NCBI GenBank assembly: GCA_934635225.1
Contig: CAKTYZ010000017.1
Coordinates: 357-64,356 of the forward strand
Reading direction: 5' to 3'
Source: an uncultured Kiritimatiellota bacterium
GTDB taxonomy: Bacteria; Verrucomicrobiota; Kiritimatiellia; RFP12; UBA1067
DNA: 64,000 nt
Below the pieces are notes generated by a model. That model worked only from the letters and a program-made list of their open reading frames with translations. It was not told the origin of the DNA and searched no databases. Every line of letters starts with the position of its first letter. Positions within the stretch are counted from its first letter, which is position 1. Made by a program: the position numbers and the translations under genes. Positions 1,819 to 40,143 of the stretch are shown in pieces.

Positions 1819-2766
1819 ATGAGAGTTCTGTGTGCTTTCGGTTTGGTGCTTGCGGCGACGACAGCGGCGCAGGCGGAAGGATGGCGCTTCTCGGCGGGCC
1901 CGGCATGGCGCTCGCGCGTGGAGGTAGAGACGTCGGGCTCGGTTTCCGCGCCGCTCGCCACGCTCGGCGCGAACTCGGTGAACTATCGCTATGACACGGA
2001 TCGCGCGCAGATCGTGCCTGATCCGGTCGATCCGACGGAAACGCTGTGGGACGTTCCCGTGACGCGCACGGAGGTCATCCAGTCGACGGGCGACGGCATG
2101 GCGAGCCTGTCGGATTCGGACAATCCGTCTGCGTTGGGTCTCAACCTCTCGGCGGGCTACGACGTCTATTCTGGTGACTGGTTCTCGGTCGGCCTCGGCC
2201 TGCGGTTCGCCGCGTATTTCGACATGAAGTCCTCGTCGTCCGCGTTCCTGGACACGGGCTCGACGCGGACGCGCGTTTCGACGGGCTGGTTCCTGCACGA
2301 GGACATGCCCTATCCGCCGAGTGCGCTGCCCGCGATCCCGGACTCGTCCACGTGCCCGACGTTCAGAGAGGATCCCTTGTCCGTCGATCCCGGCACGCCC
2401 GTTCCCGGCGCGGGCAGCCGCCTCGTGCGCACGCGCTACCGGGCCGACCTCTGGCAGATCGGCGTCGGGCCGAACGTGACGTGGCACGCCCTCTCCTGGC
2501 TCGACGCCTACGCGGGCGCGGAGGCGATCCTCAACCTCGCGGCGGCCGACTTCGACGCGAACGGCTCTTCGACCTCCCGGACGGACTGCCTCCTGGGCTT
2601 CGGCGGCCACGTCGGGCTGGAGGCGAAGCTCACGGACTGTCTCGGCCTCTACGGCCAGGTCGGCTACGAGTGGGTGGACAAGTGCGACATTTCAGCAGGA
2701 GGCATCGCAGCGGATGCCGACTTTTCCTCGGTTGTCGTCACGGCGGGCGTGATTGTTCGTTTTTGA
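1819..2766 (+). CDS. Putative outer-membrane beta-barrel protein
   Basis: A Shine-Dalgarno sequence AAAGGAGG precedes the ATG at 1819. The N-terminus MRVLCAFGLVLAATTAAQA looks like a signal peptide. The protein has alternating amphipathic segments and ends in a C-terminal aromatic residue (...VIVRF). Confidence 0.45.
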   Translation: MRVLCAFGLVLAATTAAQAEGWRFSAGPAWRSRVEVETSGSVSAPLATLGANSVNYRYDTDRAQIVPDPVDPTETLWDVPVTRTEVIQSTGDGMASLSDSDNPSALGLNLSAGYDVYSGDWFSVGLGLRFAAYFDMKSSSSAFLDTGSTRTRVSTGWFLHEDMPYPPSALPAIPDSSTCPTFREDPLSVDPGTPVPGAGSRLVRTRYRADLWQIGVGPNVTWHALSWLDAYAGAEAILNLAAADFDANGSSTSRTDCLLGFGGHVGLEAKLTDCLGLYGQVGYEWVDKCDISAGGIAADADFSSVVVTAGVIVRF

Positions 2767-2844
2767 TTTTATTTGATTTTTCGTGAACCTACGGGGCGCG
2801 TCGTGCATTAACATCAGTGAACAGCACGAGAGACGCGCGTCCGA

Positions 2845-3366
2845 ATGGAAATCTGGTTGGAAATCAGAAAAGACCCGGAAAGCGGTGCAAAACGGCTCGT
2901 TTCCGAGTATGGAGACCGCCTTTTTGCAACCGCGCTCTTGTTGTGTCGAAATGACCACGATGCCGAAGAACTGGTCTTTCGCACTTTCGATCAGGCGATT
3001 CGCAAAATTGCGCGTTATCAGACGACAGGTGCCTTCTTCAACTGGCTCTACACGATTCTGCTGAACTTCCGTCGTATGGACGTGCGCAAGCGGCGCGTCG
3101 AACTCGTCCCCGTTGGCGGCTCGTTTGACCTGCCAGAGTGTCCGGATCCTCTTTTTGTCGAATTGGCCGCAGATGCGGGAGCCGATGCGTTGCGCGCGGC
3201 AATCGGCAGTGTGTCCGAGCCGCTTCGTTTTGTTGTGAAAAGACGCTATTTCGACGCGAAGCCCGTCGAAGAGATCGCTCGGGAACTGGGTGTTCCAGCG
3301 GGAACGGTCAAGTCAAGGCTTCACAAGGCAAGGGAGGTACTCCATGGACTTCTGTCCCGAAAATAA
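2845..3366 (+). CDS. ECF-family RNA polymerase sigma-70 factor
   Basis: The segment DAEELVFRTFDQAIRKIARY matches sigma region 2. The C-terminal ARELGVPAGTVKSRLHKAREVL matches the region 4 helix-turn-helix. Confidence 0.8.
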   Translation: MEIWLEIRKDPESGAKRLVSEYGDRLFATALLLCRNDHDAEELVFRTFDQAIRKIARYQTTGAFFNWLYTILLNFRRMDVRKRRVELVPVGGSFDLPECPDPLFVELAADAGADALRAAIGSVSEPLRFVVKRRYFDAKPVEEIARELGVPAGTVKSRLHKAREVLHGLLSRK

Positions 3367-3658
3367 TGAGAAGCATCTGCCGGCAGACTTTGCCGACCGT
3401 CTTGTGGCAAGCATTCGCGCCCGCCGGCGGCGTATCCGCCGCGCGAAGGTTCTTGCGGCAATCGCGTTCGTCGTCGTCAGTTCGGTCGTTTGCGCCGGTT
3501 TCTTCGCCCCAACGGAGGCGATTGGGCGAACGGAGACGAGCCTTATTGCGGCGCATCCGACGAGCCGACAGGAACAGGTGTCGGGCTGGATGCTCTTGGG
3601 CGTCTTCAGAGAATGCTTTAAGCGCATGAAAACGACGAAGAAGAAAGAAGAAAAGTAA
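3341..3658 (+). CDS. Putative membrane-anchored anti-sigma factor
   Basis: The gene overlaps the 3' end of the sigma gene. It has one predicted transmembrane helix (VLAAIAFVVVSSVVCAGFF) after a short cytoplasmic N-terminus. The start was chosen at the internal MDFCPE. Confidence 0.4.
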   Translation, partial: SMDFCPENNEKHLPADFADRLVASIRARRRRIRRAKVLAAIAFVVVSSVVCAGFFAPTEAIGRTETSLIAAHPTSRQEQVSGWMLLGVFRECFKRMKTTKKKEEK

Positions 3659-3659
3659 A

Positions 3660-4097
3660 ATGGCTGTGTTGGGTCAGGGCATCGTCCTAATGGTTGCAGG
3701 AATGGGGATTGTCTACCTGTTCCTTTGGGTGCTGATTGTCGTTTCCAAGAAGGCGAGTGCGCTGGTCTCGCGCTTCGATTATCTTATCCCGGATGAGGCA
3801 CCGAAAAGAGCGGTGCGCAGGGGACCGAGTGGACAAGTTGCGCGTGTTCGACCGACTCTCAGCACGAGCGCATCCCTTGCGAAGGGGGAAAAGGTGAGGG
3901 CACCTGTGCCGGGCACGGTGTTGCGCGTGACGGCGACGAGCGGGTCGCGTGTTGCGAAAGGCGATGAGCTTCTTGTCATGGACGTCATGAAGATGGAGAC
4001 TCCTTTTTCCGCACCATGCGATGGCGTGGTTACGATTTTGGTCTCCGCGACTGACAAGGTTGCAACAGGTGATGCGCTTGCCGTCATTGAGCGGTGA
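3660..4097 (+). CDS. Fusion of an OadG-like membrane anchor with a biotin carboxyl carrier domain (biotinyl-lysine motif VMKME)
   Basis: The N-terminal transmembrane helix resembles the OadG/MmdD anchor. The C-terminus has a biotinyl/lipoyl domain (GTVLRV...[24 protein letters not shown]). The gene starts 2 nt after the anti-sigma stop codon. Confidence 0.7.
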
Positions 4098-5611
4098 AAG
4101 AACGAGAACAATTAATGGCCATTAAAGATATGATGAAGAGGATTCTATTGTTTTTTTGCGTTTCAGTTGGCCTGTTCGATGCACGGGCAGAAGACAACTG
4201 GCTGACGACTGTTCGCAAGGTCGGCAATCTGGGTGCGGAGACGGGGATTGCCGGCTTCTTGGAACGTGAAGCCCCCGCCTACCTCACGGGGGATTTCGCC
4301 GAAGCAGAGCGGCCCGAGGCAAAGCCGCTGTCTGCGAATCGAAACGGCTACTGGGACAAGAACGGCCAATGGCACGGCGGCTATTTCGATGACGGCGGAC
4401 AATTTGTCGAAGGGCATGCGGTTTCAACGCTCTTCGGAATGCCCTATGGCCTTGGACAGCTGATCATGATTCCCGTCTGCCTTATCCTGCTGTATCTGGC
4501 AATCGTGAAGGGCTTTGAGCCGCTTCTTCTCTTGCCGATCGGTTTTGGCGGACTTCTCGCGAACTGTCCGCTCTCGGGCATCACGGTGCCGGCCATGATG
4601 CATGACGGCATAATCGCCTTTTTGGCGAGTGGCGAACCCGTGATGACGGGCGGAGTCGTCGAGCCGGGCGGTTTTCTTCATTATTTCTTCAAGTTCGGCA
4701 TCGACACGGGGGTCTTTCCAATCATGATCTTCATGGGCGTCGGCGCCATGACGGACTTTGGCCCGCTGATCGCCAGCCCCAAGTCGGCCTTGCTTGGCGG
4801 CGCGGCCCAGTTTGGCATCTTCTTTGCGCTCTTTGGGGCTTTGGGCCTCTCGGCGCTCTTTCCGAACCTTGACTTTGGCCTTAAGGAGGCGAGCGCTATC
4901 GGCATCATCGGCGGTGCGGATGGCCCGACGGCAATCTGGCTCACCTCGCGCCTCGCCCCGGATCTTCTGGGCGCGATCGCGGTTGCCGCCTACTCGTACA
5001 TGGCTCTTGTGCCGATCATCCAGCCGCCCATCATGAAGATCCTGACGACGAAAGAAGAACGGCTGATTCGCATGCCGCAGTTGCGTGCCGTCACGAAACT
5101 GGAGAAGATAGCATTCCCGCTCATCGTGCTCTTGCTGTGCGCGACGTTGTTGCCGTCTGCCGTGCCGTTGATTGGCGCGCTCATGCTGGGCAATCTCGCG
5201 AAGGAGATTGGCGCACCTGTTTCACGCATTTCCGATACGATGGCGAATGCGCTGATTAACATCGTCACGATCATGTTAGGCCTGTCCGTCGGCTCGAAAC
5301 TCGCCTGCGAGAAATTCCTTTCAGGGCAGACGCTCGCGATCCTCGCGTTGGGACTCTGCGCGTTTTGCGTCGGCACGGCGGGCGGTGTCCTGATGGCGAA
5401 GCTCATGAATCTCTTCTCGAAGGAAAAGATCAATCCGCTTATCGGGTCGGCGGGAGTTTCCGCAGTCCCGATGGCCGCGCGCGTCTCGAACAAGGTTGCG
5501 CTTGCGGACGATGCGACGAACTATGTCCTTATGCAGGCGATGGGTCCGAATGTCTCGGGCGTCATCGGTTCGGCGGTCGTTGCGGGTGTCCTCTACACGC
5601 TGTGCCGCTGA
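4094..5611 (+). CDS. Beta subunit of a Na+-transporting biotin-dependent decarboxylase (OadB/MmdB/GcdB family), with a signal-peptide-bearing N-terminal extension of about 115 aa
   Basis: From residue about 116 the sequence ([42 protein letters not shown]...) lines up with the OadB N-terminus. The ORF-track GTG start overlaps the upstream stop codon. Alternative ATG starts lie at 4115 and 4130. Confidence 0.8.
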
Positions 5612-5663
5612 CTATGCAATCTCAACATCAGAATAACCTAATACAAGAAAGGTCCGGTCTCCC

Positions 5664-5768
5664 ATGACTGTTCGTCTTATCGTCATTGTCGCTGTTGCAA
5701 TCGCCGCTGTGATAGGCATGGTTGTCATCGGAAAACTCGCGGACGGCAAGCCTGACCAGGAGGGCTGA
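5664..5768 (+). CDS. Hypothetical 34-aa hydrophobic peptide (MTVRLIVIVAVAIAAVIGMVVIGKLADGKPDQEG)
   Basis: It is a short intergenic ORF between the decarboxylase beta-subunit gene and rpoN, with one predicted transmembrane helix. There is no homology evidence. Confidence 0.2.
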   Translation: MTVRLIVIVAVAIAAVIGMVVIGKLADGKPDQEG

Positions 5769-5894
5769 TCGCCGGCCAATGACATGATGGGTGTCCGTGC
5801 GCGTGCAAGGGATTCTCCGAGGCATGCGAGTCCGTTTGCCATGCGATGGCCGACGGCGTTGACGGAAGGGGCTTGGTTTTGTTATCATTAGGCC

Positions 5895-7148
5895 ATGAGC
5901 CTTTCTTTTCAGATTCAGCCTCGGTTGGCCCAGCATCAGGTCGCGACACCTGTAATGATGCTGGAACTCTCTCTCTTGCAATTGCCCCTGACGGAATTGC
6001 GTGAGGCGGTCAAGAAAGAGGTGGACTCGAATCCTGCGCTAGAGATCGAACGCGACTTCAACTCTGGGCGCGGCATGCATGCGGCTTCGGAAGGCTTTGA
6101 TTTCGAGCGTGTGGCCGACGAGGGCGGCGAAAGCCTTGAAGACCATCTGCTGGGCGAACTCCGGATGGATGGCGTTGAGGGGCGGGAACTTGAACTTTGC
6201 CGCGCAATTGTCGCGGAACTGGACGAAGACGGGCGCTTTAAGGGTTCTTATCCCGATCTCGTGATGACGGCAAACGCGACGGTCGCCGAGTTGGAAGCGG
6301 CGCGTCAACGTGTCTTGTCCATTGATCCGAAAGGGTGTGGTGCACGTGATCTTGCCGAATGCTATCGTGCGCAGATAGAACGCATCCCTGCCGCGAAACG
6401 ACCGGCGGTCGAGAAGGCGCTTGACGAATTGTCCGCAGCGATTCAGAAGGGGCAGATGCAGTCTTATCGTCCGTCGGATCTCCAGACTTTCCGCCTTCTT
6501 CGGATGTTGGAAGCGTTTCCGGGCCGTCTCTACGACCGTCGTCGCGTCGAGACGGTTGTGCCGGACGTGGTGGTTGATGCGGATGGCACGGTTCGCGTTG
6601 ATCAAGGCGACATTCCCGAGTTGCGCGTCTCGCAGAAGTACATTGAACTGGCAAAGGATCGCGAAGCCGATGCGGAGGCTCGTGCGTTTGCCGTCGAAAA
6701 GGTCAAACGGGCGCGCGAGTTTCGCGAGGCGCTGATTCGGCGGCAGGAGATGATGGAGACGATTGCCGAAGCGGCCGTCGGAGGGCAGAGGGAGTTTCTG
6801 ACGCGAGGGCCGTCAGGGCTGAAGAGGCAGACGATGAGCGAGATTGCCAAGAAGGCGAAGTGCGACGTCTCGACCGTCTCACGCGCGGCGGCGCGCAAGT
6901 ACGTGAAGACGCCCCGCGGTACGGTGTCCCTGCGCAAGTTCTTCCAGCTTGTCGATCAGGAACCCATCGAGAAGTTGCGCGAGATTCTTCTGTCGCTTCC
7001 GCCAAGGCCGCACGTCCCCGACCAGAAGGTCGCGGAGATGCTGGAGAAGGCTGGCTATAAGATGGCACGGCGGACGGTGGCGAAGTATCGCCGGAAGTTC
7101 GGTTTGAGCGAAGGGCGTATTCCGGTTCGCCAGAAAAATGTGGTATAA
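5895..7148 (+). CDS. rpoN: RNA polymerase sigma-54 factor
   Basis: It has a Gln-rich N-terminus, and its C-terminus carries the RpoN box ARRTVAKYR. Confidence 0.85.
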
Positions 7149-32299: not shown

Positions 32300-35200
32300 A
32301 TGAAGGATTCTGGAGAGAAATTGCGTGGGGGAATGCGCGGCGCTTACCCCGTTTGCATCGGTTTGCTGGCATTGGTGGTCGTATGTTCCGCCGTGTTCTC
32401 GTGCTGGTTGTACGGGCGGGTGCGTTCGTATGAGAAGGCGCATGGCGTGGAGATTCTTTCCGCTGCGCAAGAGGATGTTGGGAAGACGGGCGGCGAAGAG
32501 CAGAAATACGATCCGCCGAAGCCACTGCCAGAGACGGTGCGCGATGCGTCCGTAGGGGTGAAGACGCGGACGAATGCGGTGGAAAAGGCGGAAATGAAGG
32601 TCGCGTCCGTCAATTACGACGGGGATACGCGGCTTGAGGTCACGCTGACGGAGCGTCCGAACATGGACGGCATTCGACAGTACGTGGAGGTCGGGCCGAT
32701 GGACGAGGGGGTTGCCGGAATCTCCTACAAGGCGGACTACAACTACGGGAAGCGCGTCTACGAGCCGAAACTCATCATCACGGGCGATTTCGCGAACGGG
32801 ACGAACGTCACGCTGCGCCTGCGCAAGGGACTCTCGCTCTACGGGAAGTCGTCCTTGGCGGAGGGTTCCCTGGCGGAGGACTACACCTATACCTTTCACC
32901 GACGGGATCTTAAGCCGTCCGTGGCATTCGCCCATGCGGGACGCTACCTGCCGCCGAGCGGCGGACGGACGCTCGCCATCGAGAGCGTGAACGAGCCGAG
33001 CGTCCGGGCGGAAATCCGCCGCGTGGAACCGGCGAACATCGTCCAGTTGCTGGCGCGAGAGGAGAATAAATATGCGCGTTATTTCAACTTTTATTACTGC
33101 GACAATGGAGATGCTAGGGATACGGCGGAACTTGCCGGAGAGGTGACGGAAAGTTTTCATAAGTGCCAGAATACGCTCAACCGAAAGGAAATCTGGCAGA
33201 TGCCGGTCGGCGCGGCGGATGGCGGTCCGAGCAACGGCGTGTACTTGGTGAGCATCTGCCACGGGCCCACATACCGACTCGTCTGTGTCTCCGACCTCGG
33301 GCTGTCCGTGCGACAGAGTGGAGACGATTTGGGCGTGTGGGTGACTTCGCTGACGACGGGACGGCCCATGCCGGGAGCGAAGATTCGGGTGTTTTCCGCC
33401 GCGAATATCGAAGTGATGACCGGGACGAGCAATGCGGACGGCTGGTGCGTTCCAACGCGCATCCAAAAGGGTGCTCCGTTCGCCGTCGTGGTGACGACAC
33501 CGTCGGACGATGACCGCACGTTCATGGCCCTCACGGATCGCATGGAGGTTGACGAAACCTACACGGACGGTGCGCGCGCAGACTACGTTGCGAAGGAGGC
33601 GTGTACGGGGTTCGCGTGGACAGAGCGCGGCATCTATCGGCACGACGAGAAGATCTTCTACCATCTTCTTCTGAGGACGGGCGAGATGAAGGCTCCGAAG
33701 CCGTTCCCCGTGAACCTGCGACTTGTCACCCCGAAAGGTGATGTTTTCATCAGGAAAACGCTCGTTTCGGACGAATCGGGGGCGATTGCGTACAATGGCT
33801 TCGCCGTGCCGGCGGACCAGCCGAGCGGGAAGTGGCAGATTCTCGCCGTTCTGCCGGGCGAGAAGGAGGTCGTGCTCGCCGAACGCGAAATCAAGGTCGA
33901 GGAGTTCGCACCACCGCAGGTGCGCGTCACGGTTGCCGCAAAGGAGGAGGATGTGAATCCCACGAACTTCGCCTTCACCGTCTCCGCCGAACACCTCTTC
34001 GGGGGCGCGGCGACCGCGCTTCGGTGCGAGGGTGCGGTCGTCTTCGAGGACGTGCCGTTCGCCCCGGCGGCGTGGAAGGGCTACCAGTTCGGGAACGAGG
34101 ACCTCGGACTGAAGCCGAGCTTCCGGCGGCTTGGCGCGAAAGTTCTCGATGCGGAGGGGCGGATGGCGTTTGTCGCGCCGCTCTGGAAGGATTCGGGGCT
34201 GCCGAAGGCGATGGTTCGCACCACGGCGCAGGGGACGGTGTTCGAGGATGGGGGACGACCGGCGACGGCCCGCGCGACGGTTCTTCAGCACTATTATCCT
34301 TATTATATAGGCTCGACGCTTGCGAGTTGGGTGCGCAAGCCCGAACAGGGAATGCCACGCCTTCTGCTCGCCTGCGTGAACTCGGACGGGACGCGCGTTG
34401 CCGAGGCGAAGAGCCTGACCGTCCGGCTTGAGCGCATTGATTCCGTCTACTCCTACAAGCAGGGGGACAACGGCGTGAACACGTGGAACAGCGAGCGCAT
34501 CCGCGTGCCGGCATCGGACGATTGGACGGTCACCACGCGGACGGATGCGGATACGGAGGTCATCCTGCCGGTTGCCGAGAGTGGGGACTACATGGTCACG
34601 GTGTTCGATGTCGAGACAGGTGTCTCCTACGCCCGCGCATTCTATCTGAGCACATGGGGCGACGAGGCCATCCGTGCGCCGCTCGCCAACCCGACGGAAG
34701 TGACGATTCGCGCCGACAAGTCCGTCTACCGTGTGGGCGAAGCGCCGCGCCTCATCGTGAAGTCGCCGTTCGCCGGATTCGCGATGCTCTCCGTTCAGCG
34801 CGAGCGCGAACGCTATACTCAGATTCTCGAACTCACGAACGCGACGAGCGAAGTGGTGCTTCGTCCCGTCAGCCGTGAGGACGCGCCGAACCTCGACGTC
34901 TACCTCTCGGTCGTGCAGAGCGTGGCGGAGAACTCGAAGCACCTCGCCGCGCGGGCGCACGGTCAGACGACGGTGAAGGTGATGCCGAAGGAATACGAGA
35001 TTCCCGTCAAGGCCAGTGCGACGGTTGAAGCGGCGAAGACCGTGCGGGTCCAGGTTCAGGCACCGGGTGCGGAGGCCGTGTGGGTGACGGTCGTGGATGA
35101 GGGAATCAACCTCCTGACGGGCGAACCGACTCCCGATCCGGTCGCGGCGTTTGCAGAGGAGCGCGGTGCGGACCATCCGCTCTACGACATCTACGGCAGG

Positions 35201-37111
35201 ATTCTGCCCGTGGACGGTGCGGCCCTCAAGGCCAACGGAATCAAGACGGGTGGCGGATTCGGTGCCGAGATGCTGGGGCGCGTCAGCCCCGTCGGGACGC
35301 GGCGGTTCAAGCCGCTCGCCCTCCAGCGGCAGGCGGAACGCGGTGCGGACGGCATGTGGCGGACGACATTCAAGTTGCCGCCGTTCGTCGGCGAGGTGCG
35401 CGTGACGGCGGTCGTCCACTCGACGACGGCGACGGGCGCGGCATCCGTGCAGGCGAAGGTTGCGCCGGCGATCGTGATGATGCCAGATGCGCCGCGTTTT
35501 GCCGCACCGAACGACTTGTTCGAGGTGGCGTTGCCCCTCCACAACAGGAGCGGCGAGGCGGCGACGATTGACTACGAGATTCTGGCGGATGGGGCGATTG
35601 TCGCGTCCGACAAGACCCTGCACCTTGCCAAGGACGCGGCGACGAATATCTTCGTACGAGTCCGCGCACCGTCCGAGCCGGGCGAGATGCGCCTCGTCTA
35701 CCGCGTCAGCGGATGCGGCGAGCCGCAGGAGCAGACAATCGACCTCCCCGTGCGTCCGGCCGTCGCGTGGCGCGAGGTGGCGGGCGTGGCGCTGAAGGGC
35801 GAATCGCCGAAATGTGAGACTTCCGCCTTCGTCAAGTATGTCGAACGCGAGTTCGATTCGCCGCTTGGGGAGTACGAGGCGGCGTTGCGGTGGCTCGCCG
35901 AATACCGCCACGGCTGTCTGGAGCAGACGTGTTCGCGCGTCTTCCCTCTCGTCGCGGCGGGCGGCATCATGAACGGCATCGTCTCGAATGCGACGGACGC
36001 GGTGGCGAGGGGCGTTCGGCGCGTGGAGTCGATGGTGCGCGAGAACGACTTCACGATGTGGCCCGACTGCAACTATGCGCCGTGGAACCGCGAGGTCTCC
36101 CTCTACGCGGCACACTTCCTGTTCGCGGCGGAGAAAGCGGGCGTCACGCTGAACCCGATTGCACGGAAGCAGGTCGTCAAGTTCCTGACTCAAAAGTGGC
36201 AGTATTTGACCCTCGGCGATGAATCGACCTATGCGGCGTATGTGCTCGCGCTGTCGGGCGCGGCGAATCGGGATCGGCTCTTCAGTCTCTACGACAAAAG
36301 TGCCACGCTTTCGGCTCTCGCCCGTGCACGGCTCGCGCTTGCCTTCGTTGAAGTCAACGACCTCACGCGGGCGCGGACGCTCCTTGCCGAGTCCTATGAA
36401 CCGCAGTCCGTCAAGGAGGCAGCGTTCCAGCTGCTGGCACGGGTTGCGGTGAACCCGAAGGACGAGCGGAATGCTCCGCTTCTCGTTTGGCTGAACGAGT
36501 CGCGCGACCGCGAAAGATTCAGCTGGGGGACGACCGAGGAAAACGCCCACGCGCTTCTCGCAATCGGCGCGTACTATCAGGCGAATCCGCCGAAGAAGGG
36601 TGAGAAGTTCGTTGCGTGGCGGAAGCTGACACTGTCCAAGGTTGAGGACGTGAAGGCCGAATCGTCGGGACTCTTCCTCGCGCGGCGGTTCCTGACGGCG
36701 GAAGGCAAGCCCGCCGACCTTGCGAACCTCACCTGCGGCGATCTCCTCTATTCTGAGCTCTCAATCACCTCCGCCGTCAGCCGCGTTGTCAACGACCTCG
36801 TGATTGAGGACCTTTTCGCCGGCGGCTTCGAGCCGGTGCACAATGCGCTCGAGTGGAAGGCAAAGGAGGGCGACGCGGATGGGCGACAGCCTGTCGTCGA
36901 CTGGGTGATGCGCACGGACGCACGGGACGATCGTATGCTGGTCTTTTCCAAGAAGTTCACACTGGGGGCGGGCGATGTCGCACGAGTCTCGTATCCGGTT
37001 CGGGTGGTTTCGGCGGGCGAGTTCGTCCTGCCGGGCGCGAGCGTGGAGGGGATGTACAATCCTGAGCTGCGCTCTTGCCTTGCTCCTGGCCGCATCGTGG
37101 TTCACCATTGA
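32300..37111 (+). CDS. Bacterial alpha-2-macroglobulin with a thioester
   Basis: The protein is 1603 aa with an N-terminal signal/anchor. The thioester motif GCLEQ (EYRHGCLEQT) is present. A Shine-Dalgarno sequence AAAGGAG precedes the start. Confidence 0.85.
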   Translation: MKDSGEKLRGGMRGAYPVCIGLLALVVVCSAVFSCWLYGRVRSYEKAHGVEILSAAQEDVGKTGGEEQKYDPPKPLPETVRDASVGVKTRTNAVEKAEMKVASVNYDGDTRLEVTLTERPNMDGIRQYVEVGPMDEGVAGISYKADYNYGKRVYEPKLIITGDFANGTNVTLRLRKGLSLYGKSSLAEGSLAEDYTYTFHRRDLKPSVAFAHAGRYLPPSGGRTLAIESVNEPSVRAEIRRVEPANIVQLLAREENKYARYFNFYYCDNGDARDTAELAGEVTESFHKCQNTLNRKEIWQMPVGAADGGPSNGVYLVSICHGPTYRLVCVSDLGLSVRQSGDDLGVWVTSLTTGRPMPGAKIRVFSAANIEVMTGTSNADGWCVPTRIQKGAPFAVVVTTPSDDDRTFMALTDRMEVDETYTDGARADYVAKEACTGFAWTERGIYRHDEKIFYHLLLRTGEMKAPKPFPVNLRLVTPKGDVFIRKTLVSDESGAIAYNGFAVPADQPSGKWQILAVLPGEKEVVLAEREIKVEEFAPPQVRVTVAAKEEDVNPTNFAFTVSAEHLFGGAATALRCEGAVVFEDVPFAPAAWKGYQFGNEDLGLKPSFRRLGAKVLDAEGRMAFVAPLWKDSGLPKAMVRTTAQGTVFEDGGRPATARATVLQHYYPYYIGSTLASWVRKPEQGMPRLLLACVNSDGTRVAEAKSLTVRLERIDSVYSYKQGDNGVNTWNSERIRVPASDDWTVTTRTDADTEVILPVAESGDYMVTVFDVETGVSYARAFYLSTWGDEAIRAPLANPTEVTIRADKSVYRVGEAPRLIVKSPFAGFAMLSVQRERERYTQILELTNATSEVVLRPVSREDAPNLDVYLSVVQSVAENSKHLAARAHGQTTVKVMPKEYEIPVKASATVEAAKTVRVQVQAPGAEAVWVTVVDEGINLLTGEPTPDPVAAFAEERGADHPLYDIYGRILPVDGAALKANGIKTGGGFGAEMLGRVSPVGTRRFKPLALQRQAERGADGMWRTTFKLPPFVGEVRVTAVVHSTTATGAASVQAKVAPAIVMMPDAPRFAAPNDLFEVALPLHNRSGEAATIDYEILADGAIVASDKTLHLAKDAATNIFVRVRAPSEPGEMRLVYRVSGCGEPQEQTIDLPVRPAVAWREVAGVALKGESPKCETSAFVKYVEREFDSPLGEYEAALRWLAEYRHGCLEQTCSRVFPLVAAGGIMNGIVSNATDAVARGVRRVESMVRENDFTMWPDCNYAPWNREVSLYAAHFLFAAEKAGVTLNPIARKQVVKFLTQKWQYLTLGDESTYAAYVLALSGAANRDRLFSLYDKSATLSALARARLALAFVEVNDLTRARTLLAESYEPQSVKEAAFQLLARVAVNPKDERNAPLLVWLNESRDRERFSWGTTEENAHALLAIGAYYQANPPKKGEKFVAWRKLTLSKVEDVKAESSGLFLARRFLTAEGKPADLANLTCGDLLYSELSITSAVSRVVNDLVIEDLFAGGFEPVHNALEWKAKEGDADGRQPVVDWVMRTDARDDRMLVFSKKFTLGAGDVARVSYPVRVVSAGEFVLPGASVEGMYNPELRSCLAPGRIVVHH

Positions 37112-39254
37112 CTGGTCGCCCGAAGGGGCGGACGAGTATCCGGGCGGCATCGTCCTACGCGATGACGCGGGGAATGTGCTCCGCGTGTCGCTGGGCGAGG
37201 GCGATGTCGACTGCCGCCCTTACTACGCGGCGGATCCGAACGACTGGATCGTGAAGGCCCTCGTGGCGGTGGAAGACGGGTCGTTTTGGACGCATCGCGG
37301 TGTGCGTCCGCTCTCGATCCTGCGGGCGACCGCGCAGAACCTCTTTTACCGTCGCCGCATTTCGGGGGCCTCGACCCTCACGATGCAGACGGTGCGGCTG
37401 ATTCGCCCCCATCCGAAGACTCTCTGGTGGAAGTGGAAAGAGACGATTCTGGCCCTCAAGATGGAGAGAAAGCGCGACAAACTGTGGATTCTGTCGCAAT
37501 ATCTGAACCGCACTCCCTACGGATCGAACTTCGTCGGCATCGAGGCGGCGGCGCAGGGCTGGTTCGGGAAGGGCGCGAAGGATCTCGGACTCGGCGAGGC
37601 GGCCTTGCTCGCGGGGATGGTGCAGGCCCCCTCGCGGTTTCGTCCCGACCGTGGCTACGAAAAGGCGATGAAGCGTCGCGACTACGTGCTGAACCGTATG
37701 TTGAAACTGGGAATGGTCACCGAGGGGCAGTGCGCGGCGGCGCGGACGGTTCGCCCCGTCGTCCGCCGTGCGCCGCGTCCGTTCAAGGCCCCCCATTTCT
37801 GCGACTGGGTGATGATGAGGATCGGGAAGGATCGCAACGCGCAGCGCAGGAGCGGCGATTTCGTGACGACGCTCAATGCGGACGTCCAGCGGCTCGCGGA
37901 AAATGCGGTCGCGCAGGCGGCGGAGAAGGGCGGCTATTCGGTTGCGGCGGTTGTGATGGGGGTCAGGACGGGTGAGGTGAAAGCCCTCGCCTGTAGCGGC
38001 GACTACTTCAACGCGGCGGGGGGGCAGGTGAATACCGCTGTTTCGTCGCGTCCGGCTGGTTCGACGCTCAAGCCGTTCCTCACAGCCCTCGCCTTCGACC
38101 GGGGACTCTCCACGCCCGATGAGCGGGTTGCCGATGTGCCTCGCGCCTACCGGGGGTATCGTCCGGCGAACTTCGATGCGGCGCACCGGGGACTCGTCAC
38201 GGTTCGGGATGCGCTCGTCCTTTCCCTGAACATTCCGTTCGTGCAGATGCTGAACCGCGTCGGCGTTTCGGACTTCGGGGCGATGCTGAGGGAACTCGGC
38301 TTTGAGCAGTTGGGGAAGTCGGACGAACCGTTCGGTCTTGGCATGGCCATCGGCAACGCCGAAGTCTCGCTCGTCGAACTCGTCTCGGCCTACGCCACGC
38401 TTGCACGGGGCGGAATTGCGCGTCCCCTTGCGGTCCTTCGTCCGGAAGACGGAGAAGGCGAGGATGCGGCGGGTTTCCGTGTGTTTTCGGAAGGCAGTTC
38501 CTACCTCGTTTCGGATGTCCTTTCGGGTAACGAACGCGCGAGCGCGGCATTCGGGCATATCGCCGACGTGCCCGTGTCGCGCTTCGCGTGGAAGACGGGC
38601 ACCTCAAGTGCCTATCGGGATGCGTGGACGGTTGCGTGGAATCCGGACTATGTCATCGGCGTGTGGTGCGGACACAAGGTCGGCGGCTTCGGCGACAAGA
38701 CGCTTGTCGGGGCGAAGGCCGCCGCACCCGTCGCTCTCGGTCTCGCGCGGTCGCTCTATCCGCAGAACGACGGGCCGTGGTTCGTCGCACCGCCGGAAGT
38801 CCACGAGCGGGAGGTCTGTCCGCTGTCGGGTCTGCCGCGCAGCGCGAACTGTCCGCAGGGGGAAGTCGGGCGCTATCTTGAGGGACGGAGCGATGCGCGA
38901 CCATGCGCGGTTCATGTTCGGGACGCGGAAGGGCGCGTCGTCGAGCGGTTGGATGCCGCACTTGCGGCATTTTCGGGAGATCTCGACGCGGCGGAACGGC
39001 TTCAGATTTCAAAGCCGGAGAACGATTCCGCATTTTGCCGTGTAAAGGGGATGGCGCAGCAGAAGGTCATCTGCCAGGTCCTCGGCAACCCGAAAGAAGC
39101 GCGGCTTTGGTGGATGCAGAATGGCGTAATGGTTGGGAACAGCGTCGATTCCGAGCCGTTTGCCGTCGAAATGGCGGTTGGCACAAACGAGGTGACGTGC
39201 GTCTCTGCGGAGGGCGTTTCCGCATCCGTCCGCTTCTTCGTGCGGGAGGAATAA
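36975..39254 (+). CDS. pbpC: Penicillin-binding protein 1C (transglycosylase-transpeptidase)
   Basis: The GT51 motifs EDGSFWTHRGV and GASTLTMQ are present, with a transpeptidase domain. If the ATG at 36975 is used, the gene overlaps the 3' end of the A2M gene by 137 nt. Confidence 0.8.
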   Translation: MSHESRIRFGWFRRASSSCRARAWRGCTILSCALALLLAASWFTIDWSPEGADEYPGGIVLRDDAGNVLRVSLGEGDVDCRPYYAADPNDWIVKALVAVEDGSFWTHRGVRPLSILRATAQNLFYRRRISGASTLTMQTVRLIRPHPKTLWWKWKETILALKMERKRDKLWILSQYLNRTPYGSNFVGIEAAAQGWFGKGAKDLGLGEAALLAGMVQAPSRFRPDRGYEKAMKRRDYVLNRMLKLGMVTEGQCAAARTVRPVVRRAPRPFKAPHFCDWVMMRIGKDRNAQRRSGDFVTTLNADVQRLAENAVAQAAEKGGYSVAAVVMGVRTGEVKALACSGDYFNAAGGQVNTAVSSRPAGSTLKPFLTALAFDRGLSTPDERVADVPRAYRGYRPANFDAAHRGLVTVRDALVLSLNIPFVQMLNRVGVSDFGAMLRELGFEQLGKSDEPFGLGMAIGNAEVSLVELVSAYATLARGGIARPLAVLRPEDGEGEDAAGFRVFSEGSSYLVSDVLSGNERASAAFGHIADVPVSRFAWKTGTSSAYRDAWTVAWNPDYVIGVWCGHKVGGFGDKTLVGAKAAAPVALGLARSLYPQNDGPWFVAPPEVHEREVCPLSGLPRSANCPQGEVGRYLEGRSDARPCAVHVRDAEGRVVERLDAALAAFSGDLDAAERLQISKPENDSAFCRVKGMAQQKVICQVLGNPKEARLWWMQNGVMVGNSVDSEPFAVEMAVGTNEVTCVSAEGVSASVRFFVREE

Positions 39255-39865: not shown

Positions 39866-39942
39866 GGGGCTGTAGCTCAACTGGATAGAGCATCAGACTA
39901 CGAATCTGAGGGTTGTGGGTTCGACTCCCGCCAGCCCCGCCA
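39866..39942 (+). tRNA. tRNA-Arg (anticodon ACG)
   Basis: A cloverleaf was folded by hand. The anticodon loop is ctACGaa and a 3' CCA is present. Confidence 0.85.
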
Positions 39943-39958
39943 ATTGAAAGCGCCAGAT

Positions 39959-40035
<77 letters not shown>

Positions 40036-40066
40036 AAAAGATCTGGTTCTGGCTTCAAGCCCTTGT

Positions 40067-40143
40067 CGGACCGTAGCGCAGCCTGGTAGCGCGTTTGCTT
40101 GGGGTGCAAAAGGTCACGAGTTCAAATCTCGTCGGTCCGACCA
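40067..40143 (+). tRNA. tRNA-Pro (anticodon GGG)
   Basis: A cloverleaf was folded by hand. The anticodon loop is ttGGGgt and a 3' CCA is present. Confidence 0.85.

Follow-up and report, generated by a model that had tools for sequence, protein, structure and literature searches.

Why would two membrane subunits of a Na+-pumping, biotin-dependent decarboxylase be encoded behind a sigma factor of the extracytoplasmic function (ECF) group, with no gene beside them for the alpha subunit that loads the biotin? The question is raised by a 64,000-nt stretch of DNA from an uncultured Kiritimatiellota bacterium, a gut member of the Kiritimatiellia (contig CAKTYZ010000017.1; hereafter the window), in which five closely packed open reading frames (ORFs) on the + strand, preceded by a promoter-like motif, occupy positions 2784–5768 (the cassette). 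The reading that we favor, with moderate confidence, is that the cassette specifies an ECF-regulated auxiliary decarboxylase/Na+-pump module whose biotin would be loaded in trans, with canonical OadA, the alpha subunit of oxaloacetate decarboxylase (OAD), as the probable loading enzyme.

The first gene of the cassette (2845..3366, + strand) encodes a 173-aa ECF (group 4) sigma-70 family factor, assigned from its Pfam and NCBIfam domains, its orthologues and the ratio of non-synonymous to synonymous substitution rates (dN/dS). The protein contains Sigma70_r2 (residues 18–84) and Sigma70_r4_2 (residues 114–164), that is, regions 2 and 4 only in a length within the ∼170–200 aa of this group, and it scored 60.4 bits against the NCBIfam sigma70-ECF superfamily model TIGR02937 (cut-off 42.9). 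The gene for a 104-aa putative membrane anti-sigma factor (3344..3658, + strand) overlaps the sigma gene by 23 nt, and its ATG is preceded by the Shine-Dalgarno sequence AAGGGAGG. After a 1-nt gap comes the gene for G-BCCP (3660..4097, + strand), a 145-aa protein made of an OadG anchor, an Ala/Pro-rich linker and an OadA-type biotinyl domain. It is followed by the gene for OadB′, the predicted beta subunit (carboxybiotin decarboxylase and Na+ translocator; 4130..5611, + strand, with alternative starts at GTG 4094 and ATG 4115). The fifth ORF (5664..5768, + strand) specifies a conserved single-span membrane peptide of 34 aa (MTVRLIVIVAVAIAAVIGMVVIGKLADGKPDQEG); it was called in all identical contigs and has homologues elsewhere. 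The original prediction annotated the first four genes correctly, as judged from Pfam and NCBIfam domains, with the 104-aa protein placed as an anti-sigma factor by position and topology only. The 34-aa ORF, the motif at 2784–2809 and the loss of the alpha-binding tail of OadG, described below, are additions to it.

The same prediction had the four genes packed with overlaps or a 2-nt gap. The overlap between the sigma and anti-sigma genes stands, but the gap is 1 nt rather than 2 nt, and the overlap between the G-BCCP and OadB′ genes is probably an artefact of ORF calling, because this 4-nt GTGA overlap requires the GTG 4094 start. Gene callers place the start of the identical gene at 4115 or 4130. 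Since the OadB relatives all begin with M(K/R)K behind a Shine-Dalgarno sequence, and the frame upstream is closed in most of them, the real start of OadB′ is probably ATG 4130/4133, leaving a 32-nt spacer after G-BCCP. Translational coupling is thus plausible for the first two junctions only. Where synonymous sites were unsaturated, all five ORFs had dN/dS values of 0.08–0.39 (sigma, ∼0.10; 104-aa protein, ∼0.19; G-BCCP, 0.12–0.2; OadB′, 0.08–0.15; small ORF, 0.14–0.39), indicating purifying selection.

The nature of G-BCCP is central to the question. OAD_gamma (PF04277) matched residues 6–51 with 29.2 bits (cut-off 27), and the anchor matched the gamma subunit 6iva_B at 2.5e-5. Biotin_lipoyl (PF00364) matched residues 78–143 with 47.8 bits, and the MKM biotinylation motif is present; across eight members of the family the (A/V)MKM motif region around the biotinyl-lysine is invariant. 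The fusion of an OadG-like anchor with a biotin carrier, as originally proposed, is therefore real: both domains lie in one 145-aa protein. In relatives the canonical gene order is hisI, oadG (73 aa), oadA (597–613 aa) and oadB, and OadA consists of the carboxyltransferase and a C-terminal biotinyl domain. In alignment A1, residues 1–50 of G-BCCP matched canonical Kiritimatiellia OadG (the transmembrane helix and the RFDxxxPxxAPKK segment), and residues 76–143 matched the last 68 residues of OadA with 74–83% identity, the Ala/Pro-rich linker lying between them. G-BCCP thus has the N-terminal anchor of OadG, but its linker and biotinyl domain stand in place of the alpha-binding, amphipathic C-terminal tail DDANIALAIAIARG, and no part of a carboxyltransferase is present. 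By alignment, G-BCCP is clearly a chimera of the OadG anchor and the OadA biotinyl domain. In Salmonella OAD, deletion of the C-terminal tail of gamma abolishes binding of alpha, but not assembly of beta with gamma (PMC7274780). We therefore predict that tail-less G-BCCP docks on beta and does not tether alpha.

The G-BCCP family comprised 401 matches, and the best 120 were all 131–157 aa long with both domains and 55–95% identity. The biotinyl domains of gut G-BCCPs are 71–78% identical to those of gut OadAs; digester and gut G-BCCPs share only 49–60% identity in this domain. This pattern suggests that the domain arose recurrently from oadA, or that it underwent gene conversion against a co-resident oadA.

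OadB′ matched PF03977 (OAD_beta) at 8e-148 (492.5 bits, cut-off 31.6) and scored 523.2 bits against TIGR01109 (cut-off 190.6), which places it in the beta-subunit family. Compared with Salmonella OadB (6iva_A, 3e-132), the catalytic and Na+-site residues D203, Y229, N373, G377, S382 and R389 (numbered as in Klebsiella/Salmonella) lie in identical motifs. A single position discriminated 12 cassette OadBs from 10 canonical ones. Because these residues are intact and one position separates the two groups, OadB′ looks like a working carboxybiotin decarboxylase without a new function. The core identity between OadB and OadB′ is ∼90%. At the level of sequence, the cassette cargo is shown to be a paralogue of the clade's canonical oadG-oadA-oadB.

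Kiritimatiellia OadBs, canonical and cassette alike, carry an N-terminal extension of ∼105 aa that is not in the Vibrio or Salmonella OadB. It was seen in the window at 4130–4440 and, among the comparison loci (L numbers), in L007–L015, L088, L090, L129 and others. The extension begins like a cleavable signal peptide and holds a conserved GYWDKxxxWHGGYFD motif; partial extensions were found in matches from Victivallales and Desulfobacterota.

Is a carboxyltransferase encoded nearby? In a tblastn search of the window with full-length OadA of a relative, only the biotinyl part matched (3879–4088, 77% identity), and no match to the carboxyltransferase region was found. Domains HMGL-like, PYC_OADA and Carboxyl_trans were absent from the 37 window ORFs scanned with Pfam. 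Identical contigs from human-gut metagenomes (Hadza and other cohorts) extended the survey by 10 kb upstream, where an ABC transporter, a DUF1275 protein, a 1,680-aa leucine-rich repeat (LRR)/fn3 protein and an outer-membrane-like protein are encoded, but no carboxyltransferase; rpoN, gatB and gyrA lie downstream of the cassette. Over the 74 kb surveyed, the cassette is therefore not a complete oadGAB operon, in which alpha is encoded with gamma and beta. The absence of the alpha subunit from the 64-kb window, as originally claimed, was borne out by the OadA search and the Pfam scans, and the objection that this subunit might lie just outside was countered, for the upstream side, by the 10 kb surveyed there.

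The cassette is not peculiar to the window. It recurs in at least 20 metagenomic contigs with 40–88% protein identity; across cassettes the sigma factors are 44–97% and the anti-sigma factors 31–97% identical. In the sigma-linked class (L086, L088/89, L090/91, L102–105 and L191–193) the order is sigma, a 104–126-aa protein, G-BCCP, OadB and the small ORF, and ∼15 short rumen contigs (L110–112, L115–121 and L124–128) have the same order. The flanks are unrelated in all six lineages for which they are known (MTHFR/metH, mfd, RND efflux/panC, argG, GH2/SDR, and the outer-membrane-like gene/rpoN of the window). Since the order is conserved across diverged lineages, the arrangement is not due to chance; the four-gene order and its link to the sigma gene, whose conservation in relatives the original prediction had left to be checked, hold in these diverged contigs. 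Three further classes were found: (i) a type-ii class (L006, L106–109, L113 and L114), with G-BCCP and OadB and no adjacent sigma pair; (ii) a tandem class (L129, L174, L181 and L187), with oadG, oadA, oadB, a secreted ORF, G-BCCP and oadB′ on a single contig; and (iii) a stand-alone class (L189), in which oad genes are absent and the sigma and anti-sigma genes are accompanied by a small ORF of 45 aa.

Alignment of the regions upstream of the sigma genes revealed an ECF-type promoter-like motif, TGAACC-N14-TGCATT (2784..2809, + strand), 36 nt before the sigma ATG. It matched once in the 64-kb window, with 0.1–0.16 matches expected. The motif occurred exactly once, at the equivalent place (36–62 nt before sigma), in every cassette locus with upstream sequence. 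Variants had CGCATT, AGCATT or TGCATA and spacers of 14–16 nt, giving the general form TGAACC-N14–16-GCAT. The motif was absent from ∼55 canonical oadGAB loci, and a loose pattern gave 4 chance matches in 1.8 Mb of unrelated loci. ECF sigma genes under autoregulation usually have a "GAAC"-type −35 element in front of them, and the window sigma gene has such a conserved element upstream of itself. The ECF-type promoter expected upstream of 2845 thus has a candidate that is conserved there in all cassettes. No Rfam match to a riboswitch or other RNA element was found in window positions 2600–6000.

In type-ii loci the motif stands directly upstream of G-BCCP, and it also lies ahead of the lone sigma gene of L189. 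The occurrence of the motif before G-BCCP where sigma lies elsewhere is the strongest evidence that G-BCCP and OadB′ are targets of the sigma factor. It also bears on a reading of the cassette as a decaying oadGAB remnant, placed by coincidence next to a sigma/anti-sigma pair to which it has no functional relation. The loss of the carboxyltransferase, a further deletion in OadB′ in one lineage (see below) and the G-BCCP-OadB loci that have no sigma pair might be taken as signs of decay. However, all ORFs are under purifying selection, the catalytic residues are intact, the order is kept across lineages in which synonymous sites are saturated and flanks are unrelated, and the motif stays with G-BCCP when the sigma gene is absent. 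We give a decaying remnant almost no credence, as the comparative data already contradict it.

If the module works, which enzyme would charge its carrier? Tandem loci, which belong to a digester-type lineage related to "Verrucomicrobia ADurb.Bin070", bear directly on this, since their presence on single contigs means that canonical oadGAB and G-BCCP-OadB′ co-reside in one genome. This co-residence and the 71–78% identity between the biotinyl domains of gut G-BCCP and gut OadA point to OadA as the partner. For the same reasons, together with the paralogy to oadGAB, the proposal in the original prediction that the biotin-bearing module has been recruited to another partner is not favored.

A carboxyl donor other than OadA would nonetheless be compatible with the same module. 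A carboxyltransferase encoded elsewhere, e.g., an MmdA/GcdA-type acyl-CoA carboxyltransferase, would couple decarboxylation of methylmalonyl-CoA, glutaconyl-CoA or malonate to Na+ export. A separate biotin carrier and a separate anchor are the organization of the Mmd and Gcd pumps; the best NCBIfam matches of G-BCCP include MmdC, although this similarity is weak (56 bits, far below the cut-off of 200); the OadA-binding tail has been lost from G-BCCP; and among the loci compared no OadA was found for the window organism. The biotinyl domain, however, resembles that of the clade's own OadA, the module is paralogous to oadGAB and, in the tandem lineage, lies within an oadGAB operon, and a Carboxyl_trans gene was linked to none of the ∼35 G-BCCP loci examined. 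A donor of the MmdA/GcdA type is therefore unlikely. Carboxylation of G-BCCP by an ATP-dependent biotin carboxylase (AccC/PycA-type) seems highly improbable. The module would then be an ATP/bicarbonate-driven Na+ pump or, run in reverse, a supplier of carboxybiotin driven by the Na+ gradient; OAD is reportedly reversible, according to Dimroth's work. With the carboxyltransferase unlinked, a free, membrane-anchored carrier is open in principle to any biotin-dependent enzyme, but a biotin carboxylase gene was linked to no locus examined, the tandem placement with oadA favors OadA, and we know of no precedent for a biotin-carboxylase-driven module of this kind.

The tandem loci had further features. 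A conserved ORF of 139–159 aa lies between oadB and G-BCCP (L129, 4843–5322; L174, 3267–3722; L181, 1732–2190; L187, 7679–8098), with an N-terminal hydrophobic segment, a C-terminal CEFSSLRSILHP...VLC and no Pfam match. In L187, a 535-aa protein with BPL_N (biotin-protein ligase N-terminal) and FGase domains (135–1742) is encoded upstream of the tandem oad genes, at a distance of ∼2.3 kb and past a divergent uvrB. The two OadB copies of L187 (6226–7674 and 8697–10148) are nearly identical, indicating recent gene conversion between the paralogues; the pairs in L129 and L181 have diverged.

We then consider the regulatory half of the cassette. The 104-aa protein has a cytoplasmic N-terminus of ∼34 aa with a conserved LP(A/D)DFxDRL helix, one hydrophobic span, and a C-terminus with a strikingly conserved SxWxLLGxxRECFKRxK motif and a basic tail. 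Its family is small (67 clusters, 71–126 aa), and one JGI record names a homologue RskA. From its position, its overlap with the sigma gene, its topology and its conserved N-terminal helix we infer a putative anti-sigma factor; the cytoplasmic segment is too short for a class I anti-sigma domain. The small ORF appears to belong with the sigma pair, since behind OadB its homologues (37–48 aa) occur only in sigma-linked cassettes, and since in L189 the 45-aa small ORF lies directly behind the anti-sigma gene. It was not found after OadB in the two type-ii loci with downstream sequence, L006 and L113, nor after canonical oadB in the six loci examined.

This arrangement suggests another role for the pump subunits: OadB′ and G-BCCP might serve mainly in signaling, as a co-sensor of flux or of Na+/carboxybiotin acting on the anti-sigma factor and the small peptide, and not simply as the output of the circuit. 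Transporters act in signaling in the FecA-FecR-FecI and BceAB-type systems. The place of G-BCCP and OadB′ is precisely between two genes, those of the anti-sigma factor and the small ORF, which abut in L189, and the conserved C-terminal motif of the anti-sigma factor has no known partner. In addition, L086 (6631–7311) and L087 (565–1245), from two independent samples and with a sigma factor 88% identical to that of the window, have an in-frame deletion of OadB′ residues ∼90–358 that leaves 226 aa, and the sigma, anti-sigma, G-BCCP and small ORF genes are intact. In contrast, G-BCCP-OadB′ under its own copy of the motif in type-ii loci behaves as a regulon target, OadB′ has no sequence specialization relative to a canonical pump subunit, and there is no direct evidence for an interaction. 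A primarily signaling role is thus very unlikely.

Returning to an ECF-regulated auxiliary module charged in trans, we propose that it would work as follows: (i) a signal would free the sigma factor from the membrane protein; (ii) the freed sigma factor would transcribe its own operon from TGAACC-N14–16-GCAT and so raise the levels of G-BCCP and OadB′; (iii) G-BCCP would dock through its OadG-like helix on OadB′ or on mixed OadB/OadB′ trimers and be biotinylated; (iv) a carboxyltransferase whose gene lies elsewhere, in all probability canonical OadA, would carboxylate this biotin in trans; and (v) OadB′ would decarboxylate the carboxybiotin and export Na+. Envelope stress, which the original prediction suggested, would be a speculative choice for the signal.

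Several observations weigh against this proposal. A carboxyltransferase was not located in the window species among the loci and accessions compared. None of the canonical loci fetched is conspecific with the window (tetranucleotide correlation ≤0.96, vs. 0.99 for same-species loci), and blastn of the cassette against canonical loci did not find near-identical housekeeping genes. Sample lists of the cassette and of the commonest canonical OadA (P0154) did not overlap among the rows listed, and, by NCBI accession number, G-BCCPs and OadAs fell into no common ranges of metagenome-assembled genomes (MAGs). The closest OadBs among the matches listed for species-representative genomes, with 74–84% identity, came from Kiritimatiellia MAGs of gut and rumen, and none was from an identical locus. 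Co-residence with canonical oadGAB was seen only in the more distant, sigma-less lineage. Because G-BCCP has no tail to tether OadA, it is an assumption that carboxylation in trans would be efficient. The 104-aa protein matched no anti-sigma family (Pfam gave noise only, at E ≤ 10, and NCBIfam nothing). The deletion in L086/L087, with the other genes kept, suggests that the pump may be dispensable there. Finally, the OadB tree is poorly resolved and obscured by gene conversion: a first neighbor-joining tree gave an apparent cassette clade, of which bootstrapping kept one sub-clade only (bootstrap 81).

A single ancient OadB duplication is not claimed, given the poorly resolved bootstrapped tree and the gene conversion in L187. 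The MAGs of several relatives were mis-binned under Firmicutes or Bacteroidetes names: L006, L007 and L008, with Kiritimatiellia oad genes, are filed as Gemmiger sp., Barnesiella intestinihominis and Faecalibacterium sp. CAG:74, indicating contamination of the bins.

A bolder interpretation, which we consider quite unlikely, is that the sigma factor, anti-sigma factor and small peptide form a circuit with the pump module as its sole conserved regulon, and that the module, on a membrane or ion-gradient signal, inserts into, or competes with, OadGAB or else uses a non-canonical donor, e.g., a biotin carboxylase. In the former case, G-BCCP might, for example, take the place of OadG in beta3gamma3 assemblies and re-wire the coupling of oxaloacetate decarboxylation to Na+ export. 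Either variant, if true, would mean that sodium pumps of the decarboxylase type are regulated on a new principle.

The surroundings of the cassette showed other features. The outer-membrane-like gene before it (1792–2766) is only 70% identical between L001/L003/L004 and L002/L005, strains in which the cassette, rpoN, gatB and gyrA are 99–100% identical, and the giant LRR/fn3 protein encoded before that gene varies in length among strains (1680–1699 aa). This stretch before the cassette has the look of a hotspot at which surface proteins vary between strains. On the other side, rpoN (sigma-54; 5895–7148) lies directly 3′ of the cassette. No convincing intrinsic terminator was found behind the small ORF, and a sigma-70-like match with an extended TG (TTGACG-18-TATCAT, 5859–5888) just before rpoN suggests a separate transcript for this gene. 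Further along, window positions 32300–39254 encode a 1603-aa bacterial alpha-2-macroglobulin and, behind it, a penicillin-binding protein of the PBP1C type, a known pairing, and three tRNA genes are clustered at 39866–40140.

How does the cassette relate to known systems? Its parts belong to known families (OAD_beta, the OadG anchor, the biotinyl carrier and ECF sigma factors). In a literature search, no paper was found that connects decarboxylase pump genes with an ECF sigma factor or deals with OAD of Kiritimatiellia, and none in the ECF literature searched describes a bioenergetic pump module as conserved cargo. Decarboxylase sodium pumps are usually seen as fixed machines of alpha, beta and gamma subunits, with genes that stay together. 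In contrast, widespread gut and rumen bacteria keep a second beta subunit and its own membrane-tethered carrier, without the loading enzyme or the docking tail, behind an ECF sigma circuit of their own with a recognizable promoter motif. If the module works in trans, the membrane half of the pump would be modular and separately regulated, a point of relevance to the tuning of the sodium-motive force in strict anaerobes. In addition, an uncharacterized clade of ECF sigma factors gains a compact, testable system, with a motif, a target and a very short putative anti-sigma factor. Because Kiritimatiellia are hard to grow, a test in a heterologous host would be a first functional handle on their regulation.

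The closest relative is OadGAB of Klebsiella, Vibrio and Salmonella (TC 3.B.1; 6IVA/6IWW), with which the cassette shares the beta subunit, the OadG-type anchor and the OadA-type biotinyl domain. Unlike OadGAB, it has no alpha carboxyltransferase in the 74 kb surveyed, its gamma anchor and biotinyl domain are fused in 145 aa with no alpha-binding tail, its beta subunit has the 105-aa N-terminal extension, and its genes are preceded by an ECF-type promoter motif and by the genes of an ECF sigma factor and its putative anti-sigma factor. The cassette resembles the Na+ pumps methylmalonyl-CoA decarboxylase (Mmd; MmdABCDE) and glutaconyl-CoA decarboxylase (Gcd; GcdABCD) in that the biotin carrier is small and lies outside alpha, the anchor is of the OadG family and the beta subunit belongs to OAD_beta. 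In Mmd and Gcd, however, the carboxyltransferase gene is in the cluster and carrier and anchor are separate, whereas in the cassette carrier and anchor are fused and no Carboxyl_trans gene is linked; moreover, the cassette carrier descends from OadA/OadG and not from MmdC/GcdC. Other fusions of OAD_gamma with Biotin_lipoyl exist, with three biotinyl domains (P0342) or two each (P0347 and P0462). They differ from G-BCCP in their length (245–407 aa) and tandem carriers and are ≤38% identical to it. Membrane-tethered multi-carrier proteins thus exist in other lineages, and the 131–157-aa single-carrier form made up only two clusters at 50% identity (P0341 and P0344).

In its regulation, the cassette resembles autoregulated ECF operons in having a two-domain sigma factor, an overlapping gene for a small single-pass protein and a "GAAC" −35 element. 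CnrY of the CnrY-CnrH pair is a short class II anti-sigma factor, which the 104-aa protein resembles in size and topology. Unlike in those operons, the 104-aa protein belongs to no described anti-sigma family, the −10 element GCAT[T/A] is unusual, and the cargo is a pump module. A precedent for condition-dependent regulation of such pumps is the Na+-I riboswitch (DUF1646 motif), which controls OAD genes in sodium homeostasis (PMC9337991). There the sensor is an RNA and the regulated genes include alpha, whereas in the cassette a sigma/anti-sigma pair takes the place of the RNA sensor.

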